This document shows positions 8,991-25,343 of a stretch of 26,789 nt of DNA, in pieces (the first letter of the stretch is position 1; every line of letters starts with the position of its first letter). Location: the IMG/VR virus record IMGVR_UViG_2568526722_000004, positions 1 through 26,789 of that record; one strand, given 5' to 3'. Below the pieces are notes generated by a model. It was given only the letters and a program-made list of their open reading frames with translations, was not told the origin of the DNA and did not search any database. Both the position numbers and the translations under genes were made by a program. The DNA is from a virus. Lineage: Duplodnaviria > Heunggongvirae > Uroviricota > Caudoviricetes.

Positions 8991-9049
8991 ACAAATCAAA
9001 CCACATAACCAATTGATTTCTATTATATTTTTATGTTTTAGTTTTCAAC

Positions 9050-9070
9050 ATACCCCCAAAAGTACCCCCA
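9050..9070. repeat. 21-bp repeat ATACCCCCAAAAGTACCCCCA (candidate integrase arm-type site), copy 1
   Basis: Exact 21-bp direct repeat of 25211-25231; contains an internal TACCCCCA duplication; lies about 60 bp inside the left att core. Confidence 0.6.
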
Positions 9071-9307
9071 TAAGCGCCTGTATGATTAGACTCCGGGAAA
9101 AACATAAAAGCTATTCATTTAAGAGCTTTATGTCTTCATTCACTTTGTCAATTAAGAAAGATATCCAAACGAATAAAATTTCAATTTATTGAAGGCCATG
9201 TCATGTTTTCTATTTCTACAGTTTAAAAGTTTTATCATAACCTTCTGTTAGAACAGAATTAATTAGCAAAAAAACCCCAAGGGCATGAGGTTTTTTATTT
9301 TCCATTG

Positions 9308-10288
9308 TCATGCTAAAGCTCGAGCTACATTTTCTTTGATCGCAATAGCACAAGGAGTTTTGAACTTTTCTTTGCAACAGTGTAATAGCGTATTAATATT
9401 CAAATCAGTTTCAAGAATATTTTTTAGCTCACTCTTTCTTTCCGAGATTAAGGTTGGTTTATCTTTGCATTGTTTGACTATTAAGGCAGTTTCATTAATA
9501 TTCAATTGCTCTATCAATGATTTTATGACAGGCATGACAACTCTATCAGCTAAAAAATGACCATTGATATATTGATAGGCGTTATCTTCTCTCAATCCTT
9601 TATCATATAACTGCTCATAGAATTTATCAGCATCGTATTCATCTTGAATAAGGTTATCAAGTTTTTCTTCAATAACCGCTTTAGATTGCTGCATACTTTC
9701 AAATACAGCATTTTTGATAACAAATTGGTTCGTTAATCGTGGCACAGAAGGAGCAATCGCTTCATGGAAAACTGAGTCATCAAGTCTAACTTGATGCTGT
9801 TTAAGCAATAAAAATTTCTTCAGCACGGGGTAGATCAACCGTGAATACTCTGTAATGTATGCTGTAAAATCGAATTTAATTTCAGTAGCGATCTTTATTT
9901 GAGAAAGACAATACTCAAGGACTTCATGGTGTAACTCGATGCTCTCTTTTGAATATACAAATGTTTGAAAAATAAACTTGTTACTGCAAATTATCTCTGA
10001 GTCTGTACTGTTTTTAGGGCATAAATAATCAAAATCACTATCCATTGCAAATATGGCATATCGATTTGCTCGGCTCATGAATTTTTTTAATACTGGTTTC
10101 CCTTTTGTTCCTTTATTGGTAGGGTTACAAATATCAAAACGTATATCATTATCTTTATCGTTTAATAAGCCTTCCCAGAAAGAAATGTCTTTTAGACCTT
10201 CAACAAAGACAAAGCCATTGTGTCCAGCCATAATACAATATACCTGAAGATATTCTTCGCTAAAATTAATATCCTCAAACTCAGTCAT
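9308..10288 (-). CDS. ariB: AriB-like DUF4435/Toprim protein (PARIS defense system effector)
   Basis: 326-aa ORF overlapping the upstream ATPase gene by 8 nt; N-terminal Toprim-like features (MAGHNGFVFVEGLKD..., acidic AIFAMDSDFDY); low GC; the pairing with an ABC-type ATPase is the PARIS (AriA/AriB) architecture. Confidence 0.6.
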   Translation of the reverse strand: MTEFEDINFSEEYLQVYCIMAGHNGFVFVEGLKDISFWEGLLNDKDNDIRFDICNPTNKGTKGKPVLKKFMSRANRYAIFAMDSDFDYLCPKNSTDSEIICSNKFIFQTFVYSKESIELHHEVLEYCLSQIKIATEIKFDFTAYITEYSRLIYPVLKKFLLLKQHQVRLDDSVFHEAIAPSVPRLTNQFVIKNAVFESMQQSKAVIEEKLDNLIQDEYDADKFYEQLYDKGLREDNAYQYINGHFLADRVVMPVIKSLIEQLNINETALIVKQCKDKPTLISERKSELKNILETDLNINTLLHCCKEKFKTPCAIAIKENVARALA

Positions 10289-11276
10289 GAGAAGATTCCT
10301 TTGAAATATTTTTTATATCTACGAAAGAATCCATCCAGCCTTTCATTAATATTGCAGGACTATGAGTAACAATAATTAACTGACAATTATCGTTAATTGA
10401 TTTGATGGTGCTTATTAATCTTTCTTGCCACGTAAGGTGCAAGGATATTTCTGGCTCATCCATCAACAAGACAGATTCATCCAATGAAGTATTAGCTGTT
10501 TTAATCAGAATATATAACAACTGACGTTCACCTGATGAAAGAAGATTATACCTAATATCTTCACCAGAATCACTCATCTTAATAGAAATGTTACCATTAC
10601 TAAAAGAAACAACTTTGTTACATTCAGCAAATAAATTATTTATAGCTGATTCCAACTTATCCTTTATGAGAATACCTTTAGACTCACTTACTTTGAAAGT
10701 ATTCTTTAACCTTTCTAATTCACCAGCAATTTCCATATCAAGAATTGTGGTGCGCTCACCATCACTTTTTTTGAATTCATAGATGGAATTGGCACTCATA
10801 TTGATAGTTGATATTAACTCAACATTTATTCGCTTAGTGTTTTTAATATTATCACTTACGCTAACAGTTCCCATCCCGAACTCTTTAATTTCAGTGTCTT
10901 CTTTTTTCGATTCAAGCAACTCAATAAGTTCATTTAACTCCTTTATTTCCTTACCCTTTGATTTACCTTTAATACTGTTTTTCTTAAGGTTATTAAGTAG
11001 GTTTAGAAGCTGGACAGAGTCAATTTCGCGAAAATTAACTTTGTGAGTAATTGTGCCTCCATTGGCCAATGTTATTTGAGCCAACGCAGCATTACTTAAA
11101 CTTTCATTTAATTCTTGTTTTAAGAGGGCAAAAACACTTTGAATTATCGTGCTCTTACCTGAGCCATTTTTACCCACTAAAACATTCACATCTTTTAAAC
11201 TCCAATCAATGTCCTTCCGTTTAAAAAGACCTTTGATTGCTATATTTTTGATTATCGTCGCCACTCTCGTATCCAT
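10281..11276 (-). CDS. ariA: AriA-like ABC/AAA_15-21 ATPase (PARIS defense system sensor)
   Basis: 331-aa ORF; Walker A GKNGSGKST, signature-like LSSGERQLL, Walker B LLMDEPE, H-loop IIVTHS; low GC. Confidence 0.65.
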   Translation of the reverse strand: MDTRVATIIKNIAIKGLFKRKDIDWSLKDVNVLVGKNGSGKSTIIQSVFALLKQELNESLSNAALAQITLANGGTITHKVNFREIDSVQLLNLLNNLKKNSIKGKSKGKEIKELNELIELLESKKEDTEIKEFGMGTVSVSDNIKNTKRINVELISTINMSANSIYEFKKSDGERTTILDMEIAGELERLKNTFKVSESKGILIKDKLESAINNLFAECNKVVSFSNGNISIKMSDSGEDIRYNLLSSGERQLLYILIKTANTSLDESVLLMDEPEISLHLTWQERLISTIKSINDNCQLIIVTHSPAILMKGWMDSFVDIKNISKESSHD

Positions 11277-11653
11277 TATTATGAAAGTTGAAATGATTAT
11301 AACATGCTTAGCGTGCGCTTGGCATCTACCCTACAGTTGTTAGCAATAAACTTTATAACACAATGTAACACATTGAATTTAAACACTTAATATCAAATCC
11401 AACGCTAAACATCACGGAACCTGAAAGACTCTTGGCATTCTAGTTAGTACCTACTACGAAACGTTTTGAAAGGTTAAAGTGGACAGTCCGCATCAACTGT
11501 AACTTAAAATGCTCAGTAACGATGCATCTGCATGATTTGCAAAGTATGACAGAACTTCATTTGATGCTTTCACAAATGCGTGCCTGAAGTTTTCTAAAGC
11601 GGCGCGGTTAACTCTTTCTGGCTCAAAACCTTAATAAATCTGTATATCGCGGG

Positions 11654-11880
11654 TTGACACACTTGACACTTTTTCGGGAAAAACCTTAACAAAACTTAAC
11701 CTCCCCTGGCATTTCTAAGCATGGCAACTTGACACTTTTCGCGATTTTTTCGGCTTTTTGACGTGGTAAATCTGGCGAAAGGCCAGTAATGGCGCGGCTT
11801 ACAGCGAGGTTGACACTTTTTCGCGTTCAGAGTGTAAAGTGTCAACCTGGCAAGCTGCTCAACTTGACACTTTTTGATGT
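11654..11880. repeat. Array of TTGACAC(T)TTTT direct repeats plus one inverted copy
   Basis: GTTGACACACTTGACACTTTTTCGGG (~11654-11680), AACTTGACACTTTTCGCG (~11727), GGTTGACACTTTTTCGCG (~11808), inverted AGTGTAAAGTGTCAACC (~11831), AACTTGACACTTTTTGATG (~11862); immediately 3' of the 175-aa HTH gene. Confidence 0.55.
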
Positions 11881-12407
11881 CATTGATGGTCTGATTTTTC
11901 CCATTCAGCTAGGGCGTTTAGCCCGGCTTCACTCCATGATTCCAGTTCATCGGCATAATCACCTGCAACATAGCAGAGTTCGCAACGCAGCATACGAATT
12001 GCCAGCCTGGCATTACCTCGCAAATTGTATTTTTCAAAGTAATGCTGCCCTTCATCATCCTCAAGGCAGATAGCACCATCATCAAGAAAGTGCACTTCCC
12101 AGCCTAATTCCCCGGCTGCATCCAGCACACGCTGCTGTATGCCCTCGTCCGTTGCTGGCGCAGGAATTTTACCGCCTCTGGCCTTAACTGCTTTCCAGAA
12201 CTCGCCCCACGTCATTTCCAGCGTTCTTTCTGGCCACATTTCAGAAATGGTGTCTTTCCCCTGTGCTGGTGGGCTGTTCCGCTGCTCTGTCGCTTCCACA
12301 TCAATTTTTTTGCCAGACATGATCACTTCGCCTTTCTCGATCCAGTCGTAAACTGTCTGGCGGCTTACGCCTTTGTATTTGGCGTATTCGGCTTTACTCA
12401 TCAACAT
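11880..12407 (-). CDS. HTH-domain protein with terminase-small-subunit (Nu1)-like N-terminus; possible packaging or regulatory role
   Basis: 175-aa protein from the ATG at 12407 (GAGGTGA RBS 5 nt upstream); N-terminal MLMSKAEYAKYKGVSRQTVYDWIEKGEV resembles the winged-HTH of small terminase/Nu1-type proteins; the track's longer 202-aa form is an unlikely N-terminal extension. Confidence 0.5.
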   Translation of the reverse strand: MLMSKAEYAKYKGVSRQTVYDWIEKGEVIMSGKKIDVEATEQRNSPPAQGKDTISEMWPERTLEMTWGEFWKAVKARGGKIPAPATDEGIQQRVLDAAGELGWEVHFLDDGAICLEDDEGQHYFEKYNLRGNARLAIRMLRCELCYVAGDYADELESWSEAGLNALAEWEKSDHQ

Positions 12408-12506
12408 GTAGCTCACCTCATGCATATACGATAAAAAATAATTTAATGCGAAAAGGGAATGCGTTGTGGGTATGGAGGAAAGGGGCAATAACCGCCCCTT
12501 ACTGAT

Positions 12507-12779
12507 TCAGTTGCGCCAGGATGGCTGGCTAAGCGTGGTTTTCATTACATCATTGACGACCTGCTTTACGATTTCTGTGTTGGCAGTCGTGCTTTCAACA
12601 TCAACAAAGCCATAATCGCCAATTTCCACCGTCAGGGATTCCAGTTTCTTCCCCAGTGCATCAGGCAACTCTCCACTGAACCGGTGCCGAAGATTTTCCA
12701 CCAGCAAAGCCCTGAATGCCTCGCTGTTCTCTTTTTTCTGCCATAGCTGGCGTTTATCCACTCTGATATTTAATTTCAC
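12507..12779 (-). CDS. Hypothetical protein (90 aa)
   Basis: GTG start at 12779 overlapping the upstream stop (GTGA) and preceded by GAGGTGAGG; second gene of a three-gene operon. Confidence 0.45.
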   Translation of the reverse strand: MKLNIRVDKRQLWQKKENSEAFRALLVENLRHRFSGELPDALGKKLESLTVEIGDYGFVDVESTTANTEIVKQVVNDVMKTTLSQPSWRN

Positions 12780-12943
12780 AGCCTCACCTCTTTAAGTGCC
12801 TTATCCATCAGTTGCCGGGCAATAACATGAATCGACGGTGCCACACCAAGCACAGATTTCTGACGCTTTTCGGCCTGGATACGTTGCAGGGCTTCGATCT
12901 GCCCCCGGGAAAGTAAAACTGGCTTTACTCCGTGATTTTTCAT
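12776..12943 (-). CDS. Small putative DNA-binding protein (55 aa)
   Basis: ATG at 12943 with AAGGGA RBS; MKNHGVKPVLLSRGQIEALQRIQAEKRQKSVLGVAPSIHVIARQLMDKALKEVRL; palindromic operators lie just upstream; the track ORF 12776..13099 has a junk-like N-terminal extension. Confidence 0.45.
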   Translation of the reverse strand: MKNHGVKPVLLSRGQIEALQRIQAEKRQKSVLGVAPSIHVIARQLMDKALKEVRL

Positions 12944-12962
12944 GATGATCCCTTCTGAATGA

Positions 12963-13019
12963 CAATAATTGCAATTATTGCACAAATTGAAATAATACCA
13001 TCGATAATTGCAATAAATG
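12963..13019. promoter_or_regulatory. Palindromic operator candidates upstream of the 55-aa gene
   Basis: Perfect 18-bp palindrome CAATAATTGCAATTATTG (12963-12980) and related GATAATTGCAATAAATG (13003-13019) in an AT-rich region 20-80 bp upstream of the start at 12943. Confidence 0.5.
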
Positions 13020-13221
13020 AAACAAAAAGCATCAATAAACCAACCTTCGGCACTAAATGCTCTGATTTTTCTGCAAAGGTATGGCAGATGTTGCTGCATG
13101 CAAACATAAAGGAAATAGCAGAAGAAACAGCGGGGAGTGAAAAGGGGAAGTTTTTATAAATACACGATTGTCGCCTCACTGCAGGTTAACAGCCACAAAC
13201 CCCATGATAATAACTTGTTAA

Positions 13222-13545
13222 TTATTTCATCAGATTTTTCATTATTTGCGCGATTGAGTACACAAGCAAAAACTCGGCAGCCGCAAGAGTATAAAAAACA
13301 TAGATTCGCTTAGCCCACCGACGATGAAAGAACTCCTCAGCATGGCCGAATGTTCGAGATACAAGCCATGCACCTACTGCACACAGAGCAGGTGCAATGA
13401 GCACAGTTATAAACCAGATTGTGATGCCCATCCCATGCCTACTGATAATAGCCATTGGTATTGCAAAAATGAATGTTAGAGCAGCATTAGCTAATAGAAT
13501 ATCTTTTAAAGTATTTTCAATTAGTTTTTCTAGATTATCTTTCAT
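13222..13545 (-). CDS. Small integral membrane protein (about 3 TM helices)
   Basis: 107-aa ORF with hydrophobic segments (LLANAALTFIFAIPMAIISR, ITIWFITVLIAPALCAVGAWLV, IYVFYTLAAAEFLLVYSIAQI); AT-rich; directly downstream of the lipoprotein gene. Confidence 0.55.
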   Translation of the reverse strand: MKDNLEKLIENTLKDILLANAALTFIFAIPMAIISRHGMGITIWFITVLIAPALCAVGAWLVSRTFGHAEEFFHRRWAKRIYVFYTLAAAEFLLVYSIAQIMKNLMK

Positions 13546-13570
13546 CTAATCCCCCCCGTTGAACATTAAT

Positions 13571-13595
13571 ATATAAAAGCCCCTTACTAAGGGGC
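13571..13595 (-). terminator. Intergenic stem-loop with U-run between the lipoprotein and membrane-protein genes (terminator or attenuator)
   Basis: On the minus strand GCCCCT-UAGUA-AGGGGC followed by UUUUAUAUAUU; lies in the 64-bp gap between the two genes. Confidence 0.5.
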
Positions 13596-13609
13596 TTTGC
13601 ACGGATTGT

Positions 13610-14752
13610 TTAAAGGGAACTTTTTTTCGCCCCTTCAATTTCTTCCTGACAAATTTCGTCATTTGTAAATGAGTACTGCAGATAGACATATCCCTGAGTG
13701 GAATTGTTCGCTCTGGCCTCAATAGAGATAGTATCGATATTGTTTTTTAATGGTATTTCTTTTGTTCCCTTCCATGTGGCAGATAAGAAGCGTTCTTTTT
13801 TGTTTAGCCCCCTCATCCAGTCCTGAGGATCTTTCCAAATTGAACCAGCCAGCAAAAAGTCTGTAGTATCAGCCTTTCCATACAGAGAACTTAAAGAATT
13901 ACTCAATTCTTCAAACTTGGATTTAAGAGCCAATCCATAGCTATCAGTATCAATATTTTTTCCTAAAGCCCGTATTTGACATAAACCAGCTTTCGGGGAG
14001 ATCAACAAACCATACATTTCAAAATCTGCGTTTTGCTTCGGTAATTTATCAGAAGTATACAGATTCACACTGTCTGGTAGTGGCTTGAGCTTAGCACCGA
14101 TCATATCTTCGATGTTTTTCTGTGTAAGACCGGCTTCTAAGCCAAACGGACCATCCGCTGGCGGGAGTAAAGGAAGTTGCCCTTGGGAATTTTTGGCTGT
14201 TACTTCCGTTTCAGTACTGTTTTTTGCGTCATTATCTTGTACTGATGCCAGCTTAACTTCAGCGAGGCCATACTTGGCTGTGAGGTACTTTTGCTGCAAC
14301 ATTGCCATGGTCTGCTCTTCAGTGGCAACAGTAGATAATTTTAGTACCTTTATCAGACCACCACTATACTGACGAGCATCAGCTTTGGCTTCGTTGATTT
14401 TTGCATCTAAGCTGTCAATTTCAGTTTTAATTGAAGCCGCAAGCTCAGGATCAGGTTTTACTCCAGATACAACAACATCAATTTTGGCACCTGATTCAAT
14501 AGCATTAATACGCTGTTCCAAAAGCGCTTTATTAGTTCCTAATATTTCCAGTCTTGCTGTTGTCAGATTTTTTATCAACCCACCAGAAAACTGCTGGTCA
14601 ACTTCCTTAGCTGCTGATATTTCACCTTCCGTTTGCGACAGTTCAGCTTTAAGAGCCGCTACTTCCTGTTTCTGTTCTGGAGTTAACTCTTCTGGCCCAC
14701 ATCCGGTTAACATTACTATACCGACTAATGTTGCAATTAAAGTTTTATTCAT
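13610..14752 (-). CDS. Lipoprotein with internal tandem repeat, unknown function
   Basis: 380-aa ORF; signal peptide with lipobox (MNKTLIATLVGIVMLTGCG); two related ~55-aa repeats (…QQFSGGLIKNLTTARLEILGT… and …RQYSGGLIKVLKLSTVATEEQ…); AT-rich. Confidence 0.6.
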   Translation of the reverse strand: MNKTLIATLVGIVMLTGCGPEELTPEQKQEVAALKAELSQTEGEISAAKEVDQQFSGGLIKNLTTARLEILGTNKALLEQRINAIESGAKIDVVVSGVKPDPELAASIKTEIDSLDAKINEAKADARQYSGGLIKVLKLSTVATEEQTMAMLQQKYLTAKYGLAEVKLASVQDNDAKNSTETEVTAKNSQGQLPLLPPADGPFGLEAGLTQKNIEDMIGAKLKPLPDSVNLYTSDKLPKQNADFEMYGLLISPKAGLCQIRALGKNIDTDSYGLALKSKFEELSNSLSSLYGKADTTDFLLAGSIWKDPQDWMRGLNKKERFLSATWKGTKEIPLKNNIDTISIEARANNSTQGYVYLQYSFTNDEICQEEIEGAKKSSL

Positions 14753-14929
14753 ATCCCTATTCCAAATGAAAATATTCAGATTAATCTTATCAGGAACCCA
14801 GATGCAATTGAATATTCATCTGCTCAGCAACGTAGTAGATTTCCTCAGAAAGCATCAACAAAAAACCAAGAGAATCCCATCCTCTGTTACTGACTACAAT
14901 TGTTCTTTTTTTGGTATTTCCTGAATGCC

Positions 14930-15175
14930 TCACCATTGAGCTGATGTAATCCCATCCCGGCATGTGCCCGGCTGATGGTTTCGCGCATCTCCCCCGAAAT
15001 TATCCTGCCTTGCTGGTGGGCGTGCTGCCTTGTGGATACATTCCGCGCGACGTTTTGCCGCCTGTTCCCGTGCCTTGTCATCATTCGCCAGCATGATGAC
15101 CTCAGCCCACCGCGCCGCCGCTCTCCGGTACAGACCACGCGCTTCCAGTGCTTCCGCTTTGCTGTCGTGAATCAT
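14930..15175 (-). CDS. PerC-family transcriptional regulator-like protein
   Basis: 81-aa ORF with ATGA overlap to the upstream gene; MIHDSKAEALEARGLYRRAAARWAEVIM... resembles PerC/Pch-type proteins. Confidence 0.5.
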   Translation of the reverse strand: MIHDSKAEALEARGLYRRAAARWAEVIMLANDDKAREQAAKRRAECIHKAARPPARQDNFGGDARNHQPGTCRDGITSAQW

Positions 15176-15684
15176 GCGCCTATTGTCTCCTTTGCTGCCC
15201 GGCGCTGGCGTTTGCGCTTCTCATTCAGCGCCACCAGCCGCGTTTCTGCGTCCTGTTGTTCCTGTGGTGTCACCTCGCCGCACGGCTGGCCTTTCAGGTC
15301 GTAGCGTACCCCACCAGCCATTAAGGCGCGGTAATAGTGCGGACACTGCGCATAAGATGCCAGCGTCGCACGCAATGCCCCTGGCCCGAATGCCAGCCCC
15401 CTGACGGCGAGATCCTGCATCAGGTCGTCGAATATCCCCACCTTAAGCGGCTTCGGTGCTTCCCGGCTGAATAAGTCAGGCCACAACTCAGTGAGGCGGT
15501 TAACGCGCCTGCGGTTTTTGCGCTGGCGTTTGGTCATATGCCGCCACGGTGTCGCCCCTGTGGGCTTTTGCTGCGCTTTCTGGTTACCGGGCATCACTTT
15601 ATGCGCCGATGTGGTTTTATGATCTTACCCAGCAATAGTGGACACGCGGCTAAGTGAGTAAACTCTCAGTCAGAGGTGACTCAC

Positions 15685-15984
15685 ATGACAAAAACAGTAT
15701 CAACCAGTAAAAAACCCCGTAAACAGCATTCGCCTGAATTTCGCAGTGAAGCCCTGAAGCTTGCTGAACGCATCGGTGTTACTGCCGCAGCCCGTGAACT
15801 CAGCCTGTATGAATCACAACTCTACAACTGGCGCAGTAAACAGCAAAATCAGCAGACGTCTTCTGAACGTGAACTGGAGATGTCTACCGAGATTGCACGT
15901 CTCAAACGCCAGCTGGCAGAACGGGATGAAGAGCTGGCTATCCTCCAAAAGGCCGCGACATACTTCGCGAAGCGCCTGAAATGA
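15685..15984 (+). CDS. insE: IS3 transposase OrfA (InsE)
   Basis: 99-aa product [32 protein letters not shown]... with AGGTGA RBS; matches IS3 InsE from memory. Confidence 0.9.
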
Positions 15985-16847
15985 AGTATGTCTTTATTGA
16001 AAAACATCAGGCTGAGTTCAGCATCAAAGCAATGTGCCGCGTGCTCCGGGTGGCCCGCAGCGGCTGGTATACGTGGTGTCAGCGGCGGACAAGGATAAGC
16101 ACGCGTCAGCAGTTCCGCCAACACTGCGACAGCGTTGTCCTCGCGGCTTTTACCCGGTCAAAACAGCGTTACGGTGCCCCACGCCTGACGGATGAACTGC
16201 GTGCTCAGGGTTACCCCTTTAACGTAAAAACCGTGGCGGCAAGCCTGCGCCGTCAGGGACTGAGGGCAAAGGCCTCCCGGAAGTTCAGCCCGGTCAGCTA
16301 CCGCGCACACGGCCTGCCTGTGTCAGAAAATCTGTTGGAGCAGGATTTTTACGCCAGTGGCCCGAACCAGAAGTGGGCAGGAGACATCACGTACTTACGT
16401 ACAGATGAAGGCTGGCTGTATCTGGCAGTGGTCATTGACCTGTGGTCACGTGCCGTTATTGGCTGGTCAATGTCGCCACGCATGACGGCGCAACTGGCCT
16501 GCGATGCCCTGCAGATGGCGCTGTGGCGGCGTAAGAGGCCCCGGAACGTTATCGTTCACACGGACCGTGGAGGCCAGTACTGTTCAGCAGATTATCAGGC
16601 GCAACTGAAGCGGCATAATCTGCGTGGAAGTATGAGCGCAAAAGGTTGCTGCTACGATAATGCCTGCGTGGAAAGCTTCTTTCATTCGCTGAAAGTGGAA
16701 TGTATCCATGGAGAACACTTTATCAGCCGGGAAATAATGCGGGCAACGGTGTTTAATTATATCGAATGTGATTACAATCGGTGGCGGCGGCACAGTTGGT
16801 GTGGCGGCCTCAGTCCGGAACAATTTGAAAACAAGAACCTCGCTTAG
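15981..16847 (+). CDS. insF: IS3 transposase OrfB (InsF), DDE catalytic domain; expressed as OrfAB by -1 frameshift
   Basis: 288-aa ORF overlapping the orfA stop (ATGA); DDE-type integrase core (…HTDRGGQY…, …[11 protein letters not shown]…). Confidence 0.9.
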
Positions 16848-16982
16848 GCCTGTGTCCATATTACGTGGGTAGGATCATTATCCTGCTCCTGCGCCGCCTG
16901 CGTCGTTTTCTGCGGCGTGCCGTAAATGCCTTTCGGTTTTCTGTTAATGGTCAGCTTAGTCATGCTTTGCCCCATCGTTACA

Positions 16983-17316
16983 ACTGTCTACCAACTGTCT
17001 ACCGATATAATTGTTTGATTTATTTAATGTTATTAATACATAACAAAAAAACAATCTGCAAACTGTCTACCAACTCTCTACAGTATTAATACATTGATAA
17101 TTAATGACTTTTACTAAATGGTAGACAGTGTAGATAGTTAAAAGAAAAATTTTAAAAATGAACCCATAACTATCTATTTTTAGATACCCCCGTGGTTTAG
17201 AAATATAAAATAAACTGTCCACCTCTCTACCACATTAAAAATACCTATATAATTCAAAACATTAATTAGTAGATGGTTGGTAGAGGGTTAAGTGTATCTG
17301 TCTACCAACCGTCTAC
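16983..17316. repeat. Iteron-like repeat array in AT-rich DNA downstream of the primase gene (candidate replication origin)
   Basis: CTGTCTACCAACTGTCTACC (16983-17002), CTGTCTACCAACTCTCTAC (17063-17081), inverted GGTAGACAGTGTAGATAG (~17120), CTGTCCACCTCTCTACCAC (~17215), inverted GGTTGGTAGAGGG (~17276), CTGTCTACCAACCGTCTAC (17298-17316). Confidence 0.6.
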
Positions 17317-17344
17317 TTTTAAGTTTCAACTTATAAATTTCGTA

Positions 17345-19150
17345 TCATGTTCTGTCGTTAATGCCTGCCGTTGCTGGTAACCATCCATCAGCATCTTTAT
17401 CTAACAGAACATTTGTGATCGTTCGCCCTTTATCTGGACCTTTAGTGCATTTAGCCCGCTTGTACTCCTTTCCGTACTCAGCCATTGCCCCTGGCATATC
17501 TGTACCAAAGCGTGTCAGTGATACCGGTTTTCCCAGACCATGCGCAGACATATAAGCCAAATAAGCATGATACAGATATCGCCTCGGACTAAATGGCACT
17601 ATTTCTGCATTACCTACTATCATTCCCTCACATTTAACCAACGACATCAGATAACCGCAGAAGTCCACCAGCGAATCACCTTCACGCTTTATCAACAGTG
17701 CTTCTTCTGATTTTTGCTGCTCATAAAGTAGTCTTTTCGCTTCGTCCTGGTCGGCAAATCGTGTAAGCAAATGGCGAATCACTACTGCCAGTTCCCCTTC
17801 TATCTTTTTCGCCAGCATCGGATCGCGTTCGTTCTCTGGTACAACCTCAGAGAAATTAAATATTACTCGTCGACGCGAGATCCCCCCACTACGGTCGCTG
17901 AATGACATGGCATAATTGTTTACTGCCAGCACTACCGCAGGAACGCGCGTGGAATAGGGCGCTTTGTGTTTCGGATCGATAGCCACCTTGTCACCGCCTG
18001 TAATGGCCTTAATCCCAGCACCATCACCTGCGTAGCGGGTCATGTCAGGCATGATAATCAGAGAATATCCCACCACTAACGCTCGTTCCCTCGCGTCTTC
18101 CAGCGCCTTCATGCTCGCCGATACTGTATTGGCCTTACCCGCCAGCATGGTACAAATCTCCGCCATCACACTTTTACCGCTTCCGCCCGGCCCCGTTACC
18201 TCAAGGAATAACTGCCAGTCGTACCGGTTCGCCAGTACCATGAATAATGCCGCCAGTACGCGATCCGCTTTACGAGCATTATCCGCCACCGAACGACGCA
18301 ACCACTTCCAGAAATTCGGCGCATGTGTTGCCAGCGTTTCCCCCTCTTCTGGCGGGCTGAACGGTAATTCACTGGCATTTAACAACCAGTCATTTTTGTT
18401 GTGTTCCCGAAAATTTCCTGTCCTGATATCAAAAACACCGTTACTGAACCCAATAAGATTTCTGTCCGCTCCCCCCATAACAGGTAGACTCAATTTCATT
18501 GTCTCTACGGCAAATTTAATGGCGTTTTGCGAATAACTAATTTCGGCATCAATAAAAATCTTCGCCATAGACCGCTGGAGTTCCTTATCAGATACAGGCT
18601 CCCAAACAATTCCGTTGTAATGGTGAACTACATCAGAATCATCATTTATCGCCAGTGCTCCTCCATAATGTTCAAGTAACACTTCCCCTCTCTGGCTGGC
18701 TCCCATCTGATTTAATGCAGGCTTGGGTAGACCACTATTTTTTGTAGCTAATTTCATCACTGAAACTTCCCCGTGCTCAGCCTGTTCGCGGATCCGTTGC
18801 AGGTAGTCGCGCCAGTTCTCCGGTTCCTGGTCGGTGATACCTTTGTATAATTTCGCCTCCTGTACGCCAGCCAGCGCCAGCTTTTCAGCGATAGTATTGA
18901 TCTGGATTGGCTCTATCTCCCCCGCGATATAGACACGCGCAAAACGGCGTTTCTCGTCAATAATGCGGATATTCGCCAGGTCTGCCAGTTGCTTTGGCCC
19001 CAGGTAAACAGGAGGCACGTTATCGCCGTGTTTTCGTCCTTCACTTTCAATCCAGTGTTGAGCATGGGCGTAAGCATCCATCCCGGCAAAAATGATTACC
19101 TCAGTGAATTTATCCTTCGGCTGATATTTTAGACTCGGTGCGTTTTTCAC
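17345..19150 (-). CDS. Replication primase/helicase-like protein (P4 alpha / D5-type SF3 NTPase family)
   Basis: 601-aa ORF; Walker A in ...LEVTGPGGSGKSVMAE...; last gene of a tightly coupled operon; followed by the iteron array. Confidence 0.7.
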   Translation of the reverse strand: MKNAPSLKYQPKDKFTEVIIFAGMDAYAHAQHWIESEGRKHGDNVPPVYLGPKQLADLANIRIIDEKRRFARVYIAGEIEPIQINTIAEKLALAGVQEAKLYKGITDQEPENWRDYLQRIREQAEHGEVSVMKLATKNSGLPKPALNQMGASQRGEVLLEHYGGALAINDDSDVVHHYNGIVWEPVSDKELQRSMAKIFIDAEISYSQNAIKFAVETMKLSLPVMGGADRNLIGFSNGVFDIRTGNFREHNKNDWLLNASELPFSPPEEGETLATHAPNFWKWLRRSVADNARKADRVLAALFMVLANRYDWQLFLEVTGPGGSGKSVMAEICTMLAGKANTVSASMKALEDARERALVVGYSLIIMPDMTRYAGDGAGIKAITGGDKVAIDPKHKAPYSTRVPAVVLAVNNYAMSFSDRSGGISRRRVIFNFSEVVPENERDPMLAKKIEGELAVVIRHLLTRFADQDEAKRLLYEQQKSEEALLIKREGDSLVDFCGYLMSLVKCEGMIVGNAEIVPFSPRRYLYHAYLAYMSAHGLGKPVSLTRFGTDMPGAMAEYGKEYKRAKCTKGPDKGRTITNVLLDKDADGWLPATAGINDRT

Positions 19151-19437
19151 TTCTTACCTCCCGCAACCAACATTGCCCGGATTTTTTTAATATTCGTGGC
19201 TGCACGTCTCGCCACTGCCTGTTGTTTGTTTTCCACCACAATAAAATCACGATCAAACTGACGGCGCGGCATTACGCAGTCATATTCGTAAGCCTCACGG
19301 CGGTAGGTGATATTGCCTGGCGTAACGTGACGAATAACCACCCGTCCCCCGCGTCTGGTGTCCCGGAAAATATCACCGGGGCGGATTTCAGGCCGAGAGA
19401 GGCCGCTGGCAGTAAAGCCAGAATTTTTCTTTTTCAT
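19147..19437 (-). CDS. Hypothetical protein (replication operon)
   Basis: 96-aa ORF whose stop overlaps the primase start (ATGA). Confidence 0.45.
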   Translation of the reverse strand: MKKKNSGFTASGLSRPEIRPGDIFRDTRRGGRVVIRHVTPGNITYRREAYEYDCVMPRRQFDRDFIVVENKQQAVARRAATNIKKIRAMLVAGGKK

Positions 19438-19441
19438 GGTT

Positions 19442-19642
19442 TTATTTTCCTGTCAGCAGTTCCGGTTTTATTTCCGCACGAATACAAAGTTCAGAAAAAA
19501 ATTCAGGAGAACCAACAATCTCATTACTTTTCAGTCGGCATTGTGATTTCACTTTCCCTTTATCCAGGTAAACCAGTACGCGTCCGGTGAAATCATCTGG
19601 CACATTAAGCACTACGGGTACATGCGCTTCATGATTATGCAT
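19442..19642 (-). CDS. Hypothetical protein (replication operon)
   Basis: 66-aa ORF; start overlaps the upstream stop by 8 nt. Confidence 0.4.
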   Translation of the reverse strand: MHNHEAHVPVVLNVPDDFTGRVLVYLDKGKVKSQCRLKSNEIVGSPEFFSELCIRAEIKPELLTGK

Positions 19643-19868
19643 GGCTTACATCCTCCGTGAATTTTCTTCTGTAACGCGTCTCTGCCACATATTCCGCATA
19701 GTCCGACGCAATACTAAGAATCATTTCACCCTCTGACTTGTAGCCACTGGTATTGATAAGAAAATATGCAGCTTTCATCATGTCAGCAACGCTCAACAAT
19801 GCGCCCGCTGCATCTTCCGGTGCGCCATCAAATTCCCGTTTCAGGGAATTAAAACGATCATCACGCAT
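19635..19868 (-). CDS. Hypothetical protein (replication operon)
   Basis: 77-aa ORF; start overlaps the upstream stop by 8 nt. Confidence 0.4.
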   Translation of the reverse strand: MRDDRFNSLKREFDGAPEDAAGALLSVADMMKAAYFLINTSGYKSEGEMILSIASDYAEYVAETRYRRKFTEDVSHA

Positions 19869-20226
19869 GTTTACCCCCCTGAATGACCTGATAACCGCAA
19901 CTGGTCAGCAACTCGATAAATTCCGGCAGTGTGCCGAAACAGCAATCATCACGCAGCCGTTCGCGGGATACTTCAACGCCGTTTTCGTAGTGACTCACCA
20001 TACGCCCGGTAAAATGCAGATCATCATCGTGATGGCTCGTTGACGGCTTAATCAGTCGCGCACGTTCCGCCAGTTCCAGCAATGCTTCAACGCTTCCGGC
20101 AATTGCACCATCCGGCAGGTGGTAATTACGCACTATGCGCCCGTTCTCCACATTGACCAGCAACTGCCCGGTAAATTTCTCGTCAAACTGAATGCTGTTA
20201 AGGTCAGAAATTGACAGGTTATGCAT
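19861..20226 (-). CDS. Hypothetical protein (replication operon)
   Basis: 121-aa protein from the second ATG (20226), which has a perfect AGGAGG RBS 6 nt upstream; the track start at 20244 is less likely. Confidence 0.45.
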   Translation of the reverse strand: MHNLSISDLNSIQFDEKFTGQLLVNVENGRIVRNYHLPDGAIAGSVEALLELAERARLIKPSTSHHDDDLHFTGRMVSHYENGVEVSRERLRDDCCFGTLPEFIELLTSCGYQVIQGGKHA

Positions 20227-20443
20227 GGTGCACCTCCTGCACATCAGCCATGATAATTTTTCCGGCCTTATCCAGTGCCTGATCGGCTTTTAGCTGCACA
20301 AATGCTAAATAATGGGAGATGCATTCTGATTCTCTGGCTGCGTGTTTATGCGCCACACCAGCGATAGCAGAAATCTCAATAAGTGAATCCATCAGCGTTT
20401 TGATAGCGTCTACCGCTGCATCAGGCCATGTTGCATTACACAT
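20219..20443 (-). CDS. Hypothetical protein (replication operon)
   Basis: 74-aa ORF; start overlaps the upstream stop by 8 nt. Confidence 0.4.
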   Translation of the reverse strand: MCNATWPDAAVDAIKTLMDSLIEISAIAGVAHKHAARESECISHYLAFVQLKADQALDKAGKIIMADVQEVHHA

Positions 20444-20639
20444 GTTCCACCTCCTGGCGAATACGGGCGGCGAATACCATCACGCAGCCATCAGGAGATT
20501 GCTGGCGTGCTTCCTGTTCGCTGGTGGCCTCGATGTGAATTACGCGCGGTTGTGCCGTGCTCAGGGCGATAAAACGCCAGATGTATTTATTCAGGTTGTG
20601 CGAGTCCCGCCCTTGCGGGTGTGTGGTATGATTTCTCAT
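20436..20639 (-). CDS. Hypothetical protein, first gene of the replication operon
   Basis: 67-aa product from the ATG at 20639 with GAGGT RBS, just downstream of the operator region; it is the plausible C-terminal segment of the 435-aa track ORF. Confidence 0.4.
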   Translation of the reverse strand: MRNHTTHPQGRDSHNLNKYIWRFIALSTAQPRVIHIEATSEQEARQQSPDGCVMVFAARIRQEVEHV

Positions 20640-20735
20640 AGCTACCTCGATACTCTTGCTATCGTTGGTGGTTAGACGCCCTGCATGTGTGCCACCACTG
20701 CGGGGCGTTGTCGTTTCTGCACCTTGCATCAACAA

Positions 20736-20789
20736 GGTGTTGAACACCAATTTAAGCCCAGGTGTTAAACACGTCAAGTGTTGAACACT
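20736..20789. promoter_or_regulatory. Three 13-bp palindromic operators (GTGTT-N-AACAC) in a divergent promoter region
   Basis: GGTGTTGAACACC (20736-20748, perfect), GGTGTTAAACACG (20761-20773), AGTGTTGAACACT (20777-20789, perfect); between the RHH gene (20839, +) and the replication operon (20639, -). Confidence 0.6.
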
Positions 20790-20838
20790 TATTTTTTTTC
20801 CTGCATACTGCATTTGTTTTTTGTAAGGGGTACACAAC

Positions 20839-21018
20839 ATGGCGACAAAAGCAGTAAACGCAAAATCACAAACAGTTGCGGCAAGGGTTCCGCATGAAGT
20901 TATGAACAATGTTGAGGCGGTAAAAATGCCTGGTGAAAGTACAGGGCAGTTTGTAACAGCAGCATTAAAGCGAGAAGTTGAATACCGCCAGCGCCGCAAG
21001 GCCAAAGAACAGGAGTAA
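20839..21018 (+). CDS. Ribbon-helix-helix (Arc/CopG-like) small DNA-binding protein, candidate repressor
   Basis: 59-aa ORF (below the track's length cutoff) read by hand: MATKAVNAKSQTVAARVPHEVMNNVEAVKMPGESTGQFVTAALKREVEYRQRRKAKEQE; beta-strand/helix/helix pattern; AGGGG RBS-like upstream; only gene on the opposite strand in this block. Confidence 0.5.
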   Translation: MATKAVNAKSQTVAARVPHEVMNNVEAVKMPGESTGQFVTAALKREVEYRQRRKAKEQE

Positions 21019-21329
21019 CCATCACCAGCGCCGTGGTGTGAGGAACTACGGTGCATCGTTTTACAGGGCTGCGCCATGACCAACAAAAAATCAACCAATA
21101 CACCATCACCGGCACGGAAAAGACAGCGCAGAAAGATAGCGTACGAGCATGAGTCAAACAGATTCGCGCCCTGTGCGTTTATCCTTGAGAAATTCCTTAA
21201 AGAGTACAGGCGCACAAAAATGGGGTCGCATACCTGGAAAACATCGCGGCATGGCAATGTTAAAGAGCAGGAATAGCCCACCAGCAAGCCAGCATATTCA
21301 CCATAATGACCCTCAGTTAAACATAGAGT

Positions 21330-21743
21330 CATTGGTGCAAAGCTGACACATTGCCCACCAGCCGCAAATCTGGCATTGTTGGCGATGCGTTCAAGTATGT
21401 AGCTTTCCCACTGGCGGCCCTCTGCGGTCGCCTTTGTTTTATCCAGAACGAAATCAGACATCAGATTGATCAGCACCTGGCGACCTGACAAAATCGCATC
21501 AGTCGCGCCACCAGCAAAATTTTTTGCTTTCCGGACAGTGTGACCAACGACATTTTGCAGCAAAATATTCTGCATTTCTGGCGTGCTGTAGTAACGGTGA
21601 TCAGCGCCTTCACTCTGTGCGACCACAACGCTATAATCTGCCTCGTAGACAGTAAGCAATATGGCGCAGTAGGCTATTCGTTCACAAAGGCGCTCCGGCA
21701 ACGGGGCGCTTTCTCTTTTTGTAACGGTCAGAGCGTTACACAT
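21330..21743 (-). CDS. Hypothetical protein co-transcribed with the antirepressor; 3' end undefined
   Basis: ATG at 21743 overlaps the antirepressor stop by 8 nt; the first ~140 codons look protein-like, but the frame has no stop until 20436 and runs through the + strand RHH gene and operators, so the true end is unknown (21330 is arbitrary). Confidence 0.3.
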
Positions 21744-22536
21744 GGCTGTTTTCCTCCATGCGACGGGCTAACCAACGCTGCGAAAGACGAATTAATTCAG
21801 CCTTCCGCTGGTGGTAGTCCTGGCCTAACTCAATCAGCGTGATATTGCTCTGCTCAAGGTAAGAAAGGTGCTCAAGCTGCAACGTGCTCATGTGGTCGCG
21901 TGGTTCGCCTGTAATGCCGTTCGCCAGTGCCCACTGTTTTGCAGTCATGCCACCCAGCACGATACGCGCCAGCATGTTCGCTTCCGTGGTGTAGTGGTGC
22001 TGGAGTGTGTTTTTACCCAGTTCAGCCCGGTACGCCTCCAGCGCGGCACACATTGGCTTAAAGTAGCTGGCAACTGTGATACGGGCTTTCAGTTCCCGGC
22101 GTAACGCTGCGGAACGAACAGGCGCAACCTTGTGTAGCTCCTCCTCGCATTTGATAAAGTACTGGCGAACGGCGCGGCCCTGTTCGGTACGTTCGACCAT
22201 CGCCAGTTCTTTCGCCATGTTCACGGTGATGATGTACTCAAGAGCTGTTTGCTGGCGAGATTTTGCGCTCACCGGATCGGGTCGGCTCAAATATTCAACA
22301 ACCTCATAATCCACGCCTTCCGTGAAGCCGTATTCTTCAATGCGCCCCTTGATCCACGAACGGAAAACGCGCCCTACACCTAACGCCTTATGTAACGCTC
22401 TGGCACTAACAATATTGGTTTCACTCCCGCCAATAACGCCGGAAATAATCGGGATAATATCGCCGAGATTTTGCAGATTCTGGTTTTCAGGCCGAACGAA
22501 GCCCCGCCCCTGTACGGGCATTTTTGGAAATTTCAT
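21736..22536 (-). CDS. Phage antirepressor (Ant/Rha-type)
   Basis: 266-aa ORF; segment ...ALEYIITVNMAKELAMVERTEQGRAVRQYFIKCEEEL... is characteristic of phage antirepressor/Rha-type proteins. Confidence 0.55.
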   Translation of the reverse strand: MKFPKMPVQGRGFVRPENQNLQNLGDIIPIISGVIGGSETNIVSARALHKALGVGRVFRSWIKGRIEEYGFTEGVDYEVVEYLSRPDPVSAKSRQQTALEYIITVNMAKELAMVERTEQGRAVRQYFIKCEEELHKVAPVRSAALRRELKARITVASYFKPMCAALEAYRAELGKNTLQHHYTTEANMLARIVLGGMTAKQWALANGITGEPRDHMSTLQLEHLSYLEQSNITLIELGQDYHQRKAELIRLSQRWLARRMEENSHV

Positions 22537-22613
22537 AAAAACTCCTGCTATCGAATTAAGTTACTTTTATTTGCTGGTGGATAGCTGGGGGCAATAGCCC
22601 CGTAGCCATTTAA

Positions 22614-22811
22614 TCAGGTAGCTGTTCCGCGTGATTCCGCAATACGCTGATTAATCCACTCGTCAATTTCACTCTCAACGAAAGCAATAGCTCGCGAGCC
22701 AATTTTAACTGATGCAGGAAATTTACCTTGCCCCATAAGGCGATAAATCCATGCCTTGCTATATCCAGTTCTACGCTGAACTTCTGTTAAACGAATAAGC
22801 GTATTTGACAT
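22614..22811 (-). CDS. alpA: AlpA-family phage transcriptional regulator
   Basis: 65-aa ORF: MSNTLIRLTEVQRRTGYSKAWIYRLMGQGKFPASVKIGSRAIAFVESEIDEWINQR, a typical AlpA HTH; sits downstream of a P4-type integrase. Confidence 0.8.
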   Translation of the reverse strand: MSNTLIRLTEVQRRTGYSKAWIYRLMGQGKFPASVKIGSRAIAFVESEIDEWINQRIAESRGTAT

Positions 22812-22880
22812 ATATTTACCTCATAACGTCTACTCAATTTGACGAGGTAATCATGGCACAGAAATAACGAATATTTTCAT

Positions 22881-23023
22881 ACCCTCAGGCCTAATGGTTA
22901 CCGGAAGGAAATCTACCCTAAGGGTGATGGTAATCTGGAGGAAATCTACCCTAAGGGTGATGGTAAAATTGACGGGGAAGATAAAAAAATACCCTCAGGG
23001 TAACAGTAAATCACCCTCAGGGT
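22881..23023. promoter_or_regulatory. Array of five 11-bp palindromic sites ACCCT-N-AGGGT upstream of alpA, including a 27-bp tandem repeat
   Basis: ACCCTCAGGCC (22881-22891, imperfect), ACCCTAAGGGT (22915-22925), ACCCTAAGGGT (22948-22958), ACCCTCAGGGT (22991-23001), ACCCTCAGGGT (23013-23023); GGAAATCTACCCTAAGGGTGATGGTAA repeated at 22907-22933 and 22940-22966. Confidence 0.6.
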
Positions 23024-23038
23024 ATGCGGTATGGTGCG

Positions 23039-23842
23039 TTAATCCGGCTTTGCGTTCTTTTGGCTGTTGTCTCGGTTAATAGGGCAGGCAGTCCTCTCTA
23101 TGAGCGTTGCAAGTGCATTACTTGCCCCCCACTGCTTAAGCTCCCTGGTTATCGCTTCTTGATTTCCCCTGGTGGCAAAATCATTTTCTGGATCGTAATT
23201 GGCCCACTCTCTGTTTCTAATCTCAATAGCCTTAGCTAATGGGTCTTTATCCCAGTATTTATATAAGTGTATCGGGTGCTCTTGCTCTAACTGCTCTATC
23301 CTTGCCCTTAACTCTGCGTTTTCTTTTTCCAGCATTGCGATTTGGGATAATAAATCATCCTCTGTACGCAACTCTTTCTTTTCAATATCGCGTCCTTGTG
23401 CCTCGTCATTTTCAGAAGAGTTAGCGCCTTCCAGCTTCGTTAACGCGTCAAGGACATCGGGAAAAATTGCGAAAATTTCACCCCTTATAAATCCAATGTT
23501 CTCAAATTCGGGATCTTCCCAATAACCGGACACCAGAAAACCATTTTCATCCCTCTCACCAGGTAAACAACCACGTTTCCGAACCGCATTCAGATTTCTA
23601 TAAAGAACATCATTATCAAATTCATCCCGATACGGGTTACAAAAAGATTCCAACAGCTTAAATTCATTTACTGTGTACAGGCGGATATGTTCTCCGCTTA
23701 TTCTCCTGAGTATCCAAGTTATGACATCTGAAACATCATAATCATCACCAGCGACCTTAAGCACGACCTCAAGAAATTCACGTAAAGAAATAAAATCTTT
23801 TTTGTATTCGTTTAATTCGGCATGAATATCAATCATACGCAC
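23039..23842 (-). CDS. Hypothetical protein with coiled-coil segment
   Basis: 267-aa ORF between the integrase and alpA; coiled-coil-like LLSQIAMLEKENAELRARIEQLEQEH; lower GC than the neighbouring core genes. Confidence 0.5.
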   Translation of the reverse strand: MRMIDIHAELNEYKKDFISLREFLEVVLKVAGDDYDVSDVITWILRRISGEHIRLYTVNEFKLLESFCNPYRDEFDNDVLYRNLNAVRKRGCLPGERDENGFLVSGYWEDPEFENIGFIRGEIFAIFPDVLDALTKLEGANSSENDEAQGRDIEKKELRTEDDLLSQIAMLEKENAELRARIEQLEQEHPIHLYKYWDKDPLAKAIEIRNREWANYDPENDFATRGNQEAITRELKQWGASNALATLIERTACPINRDNSQKNAKPD

Positions 23843-23964
23843 ACCTCAGCGTCCTCTACTGTAGTGGCTGTACCAGTCCGTCGAGGTGTACGGATTTTCG
23901 GGAGCGACCCTAGACACAGCCTTTTCTTTCGTCGCTCAAAGTCTACTACTGTATACTCAACCAG

Positions 23965-25179
23965 TCACCCGCATTTTCCGAACTCACCATGCACCACATT
24001 TCCGCCATGCTCGAGCGAATCCATATAATCAGCGTACCACTGAAGCATTTCCCGCCGCCCATCCAGATATTGCGCATGGTTGTATGTGCCACGAATTGAG
24101 TTTTTATCGACGTGCGCAAGCTGTGTCTCTATCCACGCGGTGTTATAGCCCTGCTCATGCAAAATGGTGCTCATAGTGTGCCGGAAGCCATGACCAGTAA
24201 CCTTTCCGTTATAGCCGATGCGTTTAAATACTTGGTTTATGCTAGCCTCGCTCATTGTTTTCCTTGGATCATTACGGCCGGGAAACATAAGCGGATAATT
24301 GCCAGTTAGTTCTTTAATCTGCCCAATAAGCGAAAGAGCCTGCTCAGACAAAGGCACTACATGAGGGCGACGCATTTTCATCCGTGAAGCAGGTATCTCC
24401 CAGATAGCCTTGTTGAGATCGATTTCATCCCATAATGCACCGCGCAGTTCGCCAGTCCGCAAACCGGTGATAATCAGTAAACGAGCCGCCATAACAACCA
24501 ATGCACTTCCTGAGTAACTGGACAATGCCTTGAAAAAATCAGGTAATTCTTTGGCTGTGAGGAAAGGATAATGATTAGATTCATGACCTTGCATCGCGCT
24601 GGTGAGATCCGGTGCAGGGTTATACTCAGCACGTCCAGTGACAATTGCATAGCGGAAAACTTCCCCACATCGCTGCCTCACTTTTTTGGCTTTTTCGGTA
24701 GCACCGCGCCCCTCGATGCGCCGCAGCACATTCAGCAGTTCAAGTGGTTTGATTTCGGCGATTGGTTTTTTGCCAATGTAAGGGAACACATCTTTGTTGA
24801 AGGCTTCGAGGATGTCTGAAGCATAACCAGCAGACCATTTTTTTAATTTGCTGCTGTGCCACTCAAGGGCAATATCTTTGAAGGTGTTGTTTAACTGCGT
24901 TTCCCGGGCAATCTTTTCCTCTCGTTTCGCTTCCATCGGATCGATACCCCCAGCGATACCCCTTTTAGCTTCTTCACGTTTTGCACGAGCATCAGCCAAG
25001 GTAACTTCAGGATACACACCTAGTGCTAACAGCTTCTCTTTACCAGCTACACGATACTTGAAGCGCCAATATTTTCCTCCACTAGGTTTTACCAAGAGAT
25101 ACAGACCACCACCATCAGCCAGCTTGTAAGCCTTCTCTTTTGGCTTGGCAGTGTCTATTTGACGGGCATTGAGTTTCAC
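23965..25179 (-). CDS. Tyrosine recombinase, P4-type integrase
   Basis: 404-aa ORF next to and co-oriented with thrW; N-terminal MKLNARQIDTAKPKEKAYKLADGGGLYLLVKPSGGKYWRFKYR... (P4-integrase N-terminal domain type) and C-terminal ...GHGFRHTMSTILHEQGYNTAWIETQLAH...Y catalytic region. Confidence 0.9.
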   Translation of the reverse strand: MKLNARQIDTAKPKEKAYKLADGGGLYLLVKPSGGKYWRFKYRVAGKEKLLALGVYPEVTLADARAKREEAKRGIAGGIDPMEAKREEKIARETQLNNTFKDIALEWHSSKLKKWSAGYASDILEAFNKDVFPYIGKKPIAEIKPLELLNVLRRIEGRGATEKAKKVRQRCGEVFRYAIVTGRAEYNPAPDLTSAMQGHESNHYPFLTAKELPDFFKALSSYSGSALVVMAARLLIITGLRTGELRGALWDEIDLNKAIWEIPASRMKMRRPHVVPLSEQALSLIGQIKELTGNYPLMFPGRNDPRKTMSEASINQVFKRIGYNGKVTGHGFRHTMSTILHEQGYNTAWIETQLAHVDKNSIRGTYNHAQYLDGRREMLQWYADYMDSLEHGGNVVHGEFGKCG

Positions 25180-25210
25180 TTGGGGGTACCTCCACTAAAC
25201 CGAACAGCAA

Positions 25211-25231
25211 ATACCCCCAAAAGTACCCCCA
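25211..25231. repeat. 21-bp repeat ATACCCCCAAAAGTACCCCCA (candidate integrase arm-type site), copy 2
   Basis: Exact direct repeat of 9050-9070; lies between the integrase start and the tRNA. Confidence 0.6.
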
Positions 25232-25343
25232 ATTGACTGTAGATTTTGGAGTACTTAAGTAGACGTCAAAAGACTAAAAGGGGCGCTAACATGCGGATTA
25301 TAAGAGGTTTTTAAATACTTGAGTAGACTTGGGGATACATTAG

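Follow-up and report, generated by a model that had tools for sequence, protein, structure and literature searches.

An iteron array 3' of a Pri-Rep-type initiator gene as the probable replication origin of a phage-satellite island in Escherichia coli

The window, that is, the whole stretch of 26 789 nucleotides that was analysed, is part of an E. coli chromosome. It contains an island of roughly 16 kb (from about 8992 to 25345) inserted at the 3' end of tRNA-Thr(CGU) (25346-25421), with a degenerate copy of the tRNA end at 8975-8991. All island genes lie on the minus strand in the order int, alpA, AntA, Icd-like, small ORFs, DUF4222, Pri-Rep, iteron array, ProQ/FinO, PerC, unknown genes and PARIS which, as read from the sequence, is the gene order of the E. 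coli PICI EcCICFT073 (L005). The island carries no phage lysis or tail genes, the context expected of a PICI, and no Pfam or PHROG matches to psu, delta or sid were obtained among its ORFs. An uninterrupted copy of the island is present in NZ_CP062853 (L001). The features relevant to the array are as follows.

15620-16877, plus strand: IS3 copy (1258 bp, TTA target duplication), lower neighbour of the array and outside the candidate origin.
16878-16963, minus strand: first 28 codons of a ProQ/FinO-family gene severed by IS3 (remainder at 15172-15619).
16982-17317, no strand: iteron array, candidate ori, consisting of twelve 9-bp sites with the consensus CTGTCTACC in six doublets with A+T-rich spacers between.
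16984-17003, plus strand: doublet D1, CTGTCTACC aa CTGTCTACC, 11-bp pitch.
17004-17062, no strand: A+T-rich spacer (83% A+T), candidate unwinding element.
17063-17082, plus strand: doublet D2, CTGTCTACC aa CTCTCTACA.
17120-17137, minus strand: inverted doublet D3, reading CTATCTACA / CTGTCTACC on the minus strand, 9-bp pitch.
17138-17214, no strand: longest spacer (77 bp, 78% A+T), between the oppositely oriented D3 and D4.
17215-17231, plus strand: doublet D4, CTGTCCACC / CTCTCTACC, 8-bp pitch with a one-base overlap.
17232-17267, no strand: A+T-rich D4-D5 spacer (36 bp, 86% A+T).
17268-17287, minus strand: inverted doublet D5, reading CCCTCTACC aa CCATCTACT on the minus strand.
17298-17317, plus strand: doublet D6, CTGTCTACC aa CCGTCTACT.
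17345-19150, minus strand: replication initiator gene of the Pri-Rep type (601 aa), with the Pfam families D5_N, DUF5906 (SF3 helicase P-loop) and Pox_D5.
17375-17680, minus strand: codons 491-592 of the initiator gene, whose product is homologous to the origin-binding winged-helix domain of P4 alpha (PDB 1KA8, E = 1e-18).
17411-17461, minus strand: codons 564-580 of the initiator gene, specifying the putative wing (KRAKCTKGPDKGRTITN), which co-varies with the iteron core.
22614-22811, minus strand: AlpA.
23965-25179, minus strand: P4-type integrase.

The 381-bp gap between the initiator stop codon (17345) and the ProQ/FinO start codon (16963) is filled by the array alone, and the first-pass annotation was correct in placing the array directly 3' of the replication gene as the sole separator from the IS3-disrupted gene. 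D6 ends 28 bp from the initiator stop codon. IS3 splits the ProQ/FinO gene 84 bp past its start and leaves the array and the initiator gene untouched, the latter being intact in the window copy. A 74-aa ORF at 16865-17089 (plus strand), running from the end of IS3 antisense across the ProQ start and into the array, was rejected as a gene; RefSeq has no annotation there. IS3-family insertions recur around the locus of the array across strains: in FDAARGOS_1300 (L092, NZ_CP069996, 1235-2755) an IS3-family element lies inside the array and the ProQ-proximal doublets, ProQ and PerC are lost, and in TUM9812 (L091, NZ_CP128926, 2269-2436) the ProQ gene is truncated.

Several features were recorded elsewhere in the island. 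The int-alpA RNA (Rfam RF02996) was found at 23853-23920 on the minus strand (45.5 bits, gathering threshold 35.8), directly downstream of the integrase gene and ahead of the ORF at 23039-23842. A tandem 33-bp duplication (22894-22959, 88% identical) just upstream of alpA may be an operator of the island regulatory region. At the far end of the island there is an anti-phage pair of the PARIS type (9308-11276, minus strand) comprising AriA (AAA ATPase, 10281-11276) and AriB (DUF4435, 9308-10288), with PADLOC E values of 2.6e-43 and 3.6e-22, respectively. The 435-aa stop-free ORF at 20436-21743 (minus strand) was matched only in its last ~90 residues (Icd-like, phrog_6196); in this interval RefSeq has a short Icd-like gene and, on the opposite strand, two small genes. 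The ORFs at 13610-14752, 13222-13545, 12776-13099, 12507-12779 and 23039-23842 (minus strand, 90-380 aa) gave no Pfam or PHROG match and the first and last of these no PADLOC match either, while the ORF at 11880-12488 gave only a weak HTH / small-terminase-like match.

The 3' end of thrW, TGGTGCCGATAATAGGA (25346-25362), has its degenerate copy (8975-8991) directly past a lambdoid integrase gene (7797-8960, plus strand), which places island and prophage in tandem at thrW. A 21-bp repeat, ATACCCCCAAAAGTACCCCCA, is present in both island arms (9050-9070 and 25211-25231), and TACTTRAGTAGAC occurs twice beside int (25250-25329); both look like arm-type integrase sites. Locus L094, which pairs a 91%-identical integrase with a different primase, keeps beside its integrase both the 13-bp repeats and, with two substitutions, the int-proximal 21-mer; these repeats therefore follow the integrase and not the primase. 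The GTAGAC cores at 25240-25330 near the integrase were rejected as a second iteron cluster because they form part of the integrase-linked 13-bp repeats.

The 19-mer CTGTCTACCAACYGTCTAC, searched with up to three mismatches, gave four matches in the window, each within 16984-17316 (0.01 expected from shuffles; none of 100 shuffles reached four). The 9-mer CTGTCTACC, allowing one mismatch, gave 11 matches in the 26.8-kb window versus 2.85 expected, seven of them within 16984-17306. The twelve sites in six doublets were obtained by reading half-sites. The repeat array at 16982-17317 is real and non-random. It holds 11 TCTAC-type cores and no core of the P4 type (T[GA]TTCAC). The pitch within D1-D6 is 11, 11, 9, 8, 11 and 11 bp, respectively. 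Four doublets are direct on the plus strand (D1, D2, D4 and D6) and two are inverted (D3 and D5), so that the four direct and two inverted copies of a ~19-bp motif described in the first-pass annotation hold good as doublets, two of which are nevertheless off the 19-mer register. The 38-nt stretch beginning at D2 is 79% identical to that beginning at D1, and D5 and D6 together form a 17-nt inverted repeat. Read in the direction of the gene, the order of sites in the window and in E. ruysiae is << >> << (86-bp gap) >> << (68-bp gap) <<, spanning ~335 bp; in strain FDAARGOS_1058 D1 has an additional third 11-bp unit. No second iteron cluster was found in the window, where other 400-bp stretches hold at most four degenerate cores.

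The repeats had been described as embedded in very AT-rich DNA, and this is borne out by an A+T content of 71% for the array and 78-86% for the spacers (G+C 27% at 17000-17299). Across the 26.8-kb window, duplex stability is lowest for the 40-mer that begins at 17004, in the spacer at 17004-17062, and next lowest in the D4-D5 spacer (40-mers starting at 17232-17236). The 77-bp spacer is bracketed by D3 (inverted) and D4 (direct) and the 36-bp spacer by D4 and D5. No GATC was present in the 381-bp intergenic region, and the DnaA box TTWTNCACA was found neither in the array nor elsewhere in the window. The window has six IHF consensus matches, of which two fall in the array (17008-17020 and 17087-17099), at equivalent places just past D1 and D2. 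In a comparison of eight close array variants, variable columns made up 10% of the cores (taken as 5 bp) and 20% of the spacers, a difference that is not significant (p = 0.09) and was not used as evidence for an origin.

The gene product had previously been labelled a primase/helicase. The label is appropriate in so far as D5_N, the SF3 helicase and the origin-binding domain are recognized; the N-terminal 160 residues match no primase family. Residues 1-160 (18671-19150, minus strand) gave no Pfam match even at E values of up to 10, and no zinc-finger or Toprim primase part was detectable in the initiator. The match to NCBIfam 'primase_Cterm' was below its cutoff (94 versus 108.7 bits). In P4 alpha the origin-binding domain has two conserved tyrosines on alpha2, followed by the recognition helix and then a beta-hairpin wing (PMC2777425). 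From the alignment with 1KA8 and this published winged-helix topology, residues 564-580 would be the wing. Relative to 1KA8 there is a five-residue insertion (GPDKG) past the last helix. A single-sequence AlphaFold model of residues 470-601 (pLDDT 36) was discarded.

Fillol-Salom et al. 2018 (PMC6092414) place the origin of Gram-negative PICIs directly 3' of their replication initiation gene. The rep-ori segment of EcCICFT073 maintained a temperature-sensitive plasmid, the rep mutant giving no colonies and deletion of ori significantly fewer (PMC6092414); thrW, iteron and ProQ were not found in the supplements of that paper. We mapped the corresponding EcCICFT073 region (L005 4930-5217) and found 12 sites with the core CTGTCTACC or CTATCTACC. 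EcCICFT073 resembles the window in having its array immediately 3' of pri-rep in an int-alpA-...-DUF4222-pri-rep island with one direction of transcription, in having A+T-rich DNA surrounded by 12 short sites of both orientations with the identical iteron core TCTACC, and in having a single cluster, with no T-type cores in the remaining 9.8 kb of its locus beyond gene and array. It differs in its initiator (44% identical to that of the window), in its putative wing (TRKVKGVTQTN versus KRAKCTKGPDKGRTITN), in the length of its array (~235 versus ~335 bp) and in its downstream gene (a hypothetical gene plus SSB, versus ProQ/FinO). Its layout, >> < >>> <<< > <<, a descriptive criterion of our own and not one from the literature, is common to L002, L011, L016 and L021 and unlike that of the window. 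Since the layout of the window differs from that of EcCICFT073 and most relatives, function is not simply transferable from EcCICFT073.

From its anatomy, its position and the comparison with EcCICFT073, the array probably serves a PICI-type phage-satellite island at tRNA-Thr as its origin of replication. The array had already been put forward as a candidate origin, and this proposal is supported by its position and anatomy, the EcCICFT073 core, the 1KA8 homology and a co-variation across 86 loci that is described below.

The SaPIs (Staphylococcus aureus pathogenicity islands) provide a further comparison. Their origins consist of 6-12 short iterons directly after rep; the centre is A+T-rich and is flanked on either side by two or more iterons in opposite directions, and the iterons are read by the C-terminal winged-helix domain of a self-loading Rep helicase (PMC9371898). 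The window array likewise has at least two opposed iterons to either side of A+T-rich DNA. The relationship between the proteins is distant, the match to the PriRep5 structure 7OLA (E = 2.7e-8) being confined to the helicase core; the SaPI iterons are 5-6 bp long versus 9 bp in the window, and the host of the window island is Gram-negative.

Iteron co-variation was examined in 86 loci (Enterobacterales plus P4) with sufficient downstream sequence, made up of 80 loci with relatives of the protein from a scan of one-genome-per-species contigs, five E. coli loci and P4. In all 86, the 450 bp past the stop codon contain 3-13 copies of one short motif on both strands, and this motif is rare elsewhere in each locus. 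The class of the motif tracks the putative wing segment in 86 of 86 loci, with zero exceptions, in the following pairs.

Wing K[RK]K[TS]K.G.RSN with iteron core T[GA]TTCAC: about 60 loci and P4.
Wing ..T[KR][GN]PDKGR.I[TS]N with core [GA]TCTAC: window, E. ruysiae, Kluyvera, Enterobacter, Lelliottia and Scandinavium.
Wing RKKSTKGN.RSN with core TCTCCAC: Yersinia, Rahnella, Erwinia and others.
Wing KKATRGRIQSN with core TGTCCGC: Serratia.
Wing ERATRGPSKGNYQSN with core TGTCCAC: L029 (Serratia oryzae).

The window protein is 90% identical to those of the TTCAC-type loci L002 and L003 and 87% identical to those of the TCTAC-type loci L011 and L016; L011 itself shares 95% identity with the TTCAC-type L009. 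Despite an identity of 98-99% to L028 and L030, L029 has another wing and one changed iteron base. The protein upstream of the wing is thus not sorted by class, and the pattern does not merely reflect shared ancestry. An island with a 91% identical integrase and a different primase of 813 aa carries the iteron ATCCCTAC at the equivalent position.

The same repeats could instead be operators in the promoter region of ProQ/FinO, PerC and the following genes, bound by the initiator or another regulator and having no origin function. The last doublet lies 20 bp from the ProQ/FinO start codon, three promoter-like hexamer pairs overlap sites, and no terminator was predicted on the coding strand of the array region, so that transcription probably crosses the array. 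The number of hexamer pairs is, however, at chance level (three versus 2.3 expected), and a promoter or terminator signal in the array was rejected as not above chance. Equivalent arrays precede unrelated genes (a hypothetical gene plus SSB in EcCICFT073 and L002, capsid genes in others), and the repeat sequence tracks the DNA-binding segment of the initiator rather than the variable downstream genes. A purely regulatory function is accordingly unlikely; binding of the initiator at the array may have a regulatory side role.

The array had also been likened to the P4 cis replication region. In P4, crr (4291-4590) lies just 3' of alpha (4636-6969), as the window array does relative to its initiator, and this part of the likeness stands. 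The two systems further share 8-9-bp iterons in both orientations and an SF3-helicase initiator with a homologous C-terminal origin-binding domain (1KA8), and the close alleles of the window protein in L002-L004 use the P4 iteron TGTTCACC. The iteron of the window is TGTCTACC, alpha is 777 aa long whereas the window protein has 601 aa and lacks a detectable zinc-finger or Toprim primase part, and the P4 genes psu, delta and sid have no detected counterparts in the island. A literature search with the bare string TGTTCACC returned unrelated primer matches only. The likeness does not extend to the logic of the system: P4 uses ori plus crr, two clusters, and the window island has one.

In view of the exact equivalence in position, the iterons in both orientations and the P4-type origin-binding domain, the array might be a crr-like auxiliary element needed in cis, with initiation at a separate origin elsewhere in the island. 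This we consider very unlikely, because P4 has its second iteron cluster 4.5 kb away (nine sites outside crr) whereas none is present in the window, where the small group near the integrase consists of 13-bp repeats travelling with the integrase and not with the primase type, and because EcCICFT073 likewise lacks T-type cores in the rest of its locus.

Among 5426 complete E. coli genomes, 105 carry the 335-bp array. No plasmid was found to contain it, and its derivation from a plasmid or a phage was rejected. The repeats, though real, could also be a decayed or inactive relic that does not work in this copy. Some window sites are off the consensus where the E. ruysiae copy retains it (for example CTGTCCACC and CTCTCTACA), the island carries IS3 and another strain has an IS3-family element inside the array. 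Against this, the initiator is encoded by an intact gene that, along with the array, is found in about 70 E. coli genomes at an identity of at least 99%, and both E. ruysiae and array variants as little as 87% identical keep the 12-site layout, which makes a relic highly improbable.

That the region acts as RNA, either as a structured terminator or attenuator after the initiator or as a partner RNA of the ProQ/FinO-family protein, is scarcely credible. In its favour, the predicted fold of the minus-strand transcript is much stronger than that of shuffled sequences (-98.2 kcal/mol, z = -5.25), the D5/D6 17-nt hairpin directly follows the stop codon and the gene of a ProQ/FinO RNA chaperone adjoins the array. 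Such a fold, however, simply results from the presence of one DNA motif in inverted copies, and the 9-mer is also repeated in direct tandem, where it has nothing to pair with. Arrays of the same type are found in islands without a ProQ gene, the coding strand has no predicted terminator and a known RNA family was rejected in the absence of an Rfam match in the array (best E = 0.75).

Theta plasmid origins of the pSC101, F, P1 and R6K type have direct iterons of 17-22 bp and a RepA-type (WH1-WH2) initiator, together with DnaA boxes and loading of the host DnaB. The array shares with them repeated initiator sites beside an A+T-rich region and the initiator gene; it differs in that its sites are 9 bp long and in both orientations, that it has no DnaA box, that the initiator is itself a helicase and that the array was not found on any plasmid.

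For the array as an origin, the following mechanism is proposed. The 601-aa initiator, identified by homology as an SF3 helicase whose C-terminal part is a winged-helix origin-binding domain, would recognize the 9-bp sites CTGTCTACC through this domain, and at the 8-11 bp pitch of the doublets two bound protomers would lie on roughly one side of the helix; both steps are suggested by the co-variation and by the biochemistry of P4 alpha and SaPI Rep. Oppositely oriented doublets would bracket the least stable A+T-rich spacers (17004-17062, 17138-17214 and 17232-17267). The bound initiator would form hexamers, melt a spacer and load itself as the replicative helicase without DnaA, consistent with the absence of a DnaA box. 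Priming would be carried out either by the N-terminal part of the initiator or by a host or helper primase. Specificity would be set by the putative wing (564-580) after the recognition helix, and the wing segment, the C-terminal tail and the array appear from their sequences to travel as one exchangeable module, in which case each island would be expected to replicate only from its own origin.

Evidence for exchange comes from two independent cross-class pairs in which DNA homology breaks off about 39 codons before the stop codon. Homology between the window and L002 ends at 17463 (codon 562), 118 bp ahead of the stop, and that between L011 and L009 ends 114 bp ahead of it, which indicates that wing, tail and array move as one unit. 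We tentatively suggest that the last ~40 initiator codons (putative wing and tail) and the array may constitute one exchangeable specificity cassette, swapped repeatedly between initiators that are 90-99% identical at a fixed breakpoint just past the recognition helix, and that this may give rise, among satellites resident in one cell, to mutually orthogonal groups of replicons, of which the window represents a distinct solution. The pairing in the window of the GPDKG wing insertion with a six-doublet, 335-bp origin containing two low-stability spacers could be read in the same way, although we would not put this above a conjecture. If the cassette reading is true, the sequence of the wing would predict that of the iteron and satellite origins would be re-targetable by a swap of ~17 residues.

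The kind of origin proposed here has already been described and tested in the sister island EcCICFT073, and the finding is correct and ordinary in this respect; the current view of how satellite elements replicate is unchanged. Only the unusual layout, the wing-iteron rule and the cassette-like exchange are fresh points. For the island itself, a 335-bp stretch that had no annotation becomes the probable origin of a PARIS-carrying satellite. Across Enterobacterales, the rule links a 17-residue protein segment to an iteron sequence; it could aid the automatic annotation of satellite origins, predict cross-activation between co-resident satellites and guide the design of orthogonal initiator-origin pairs.
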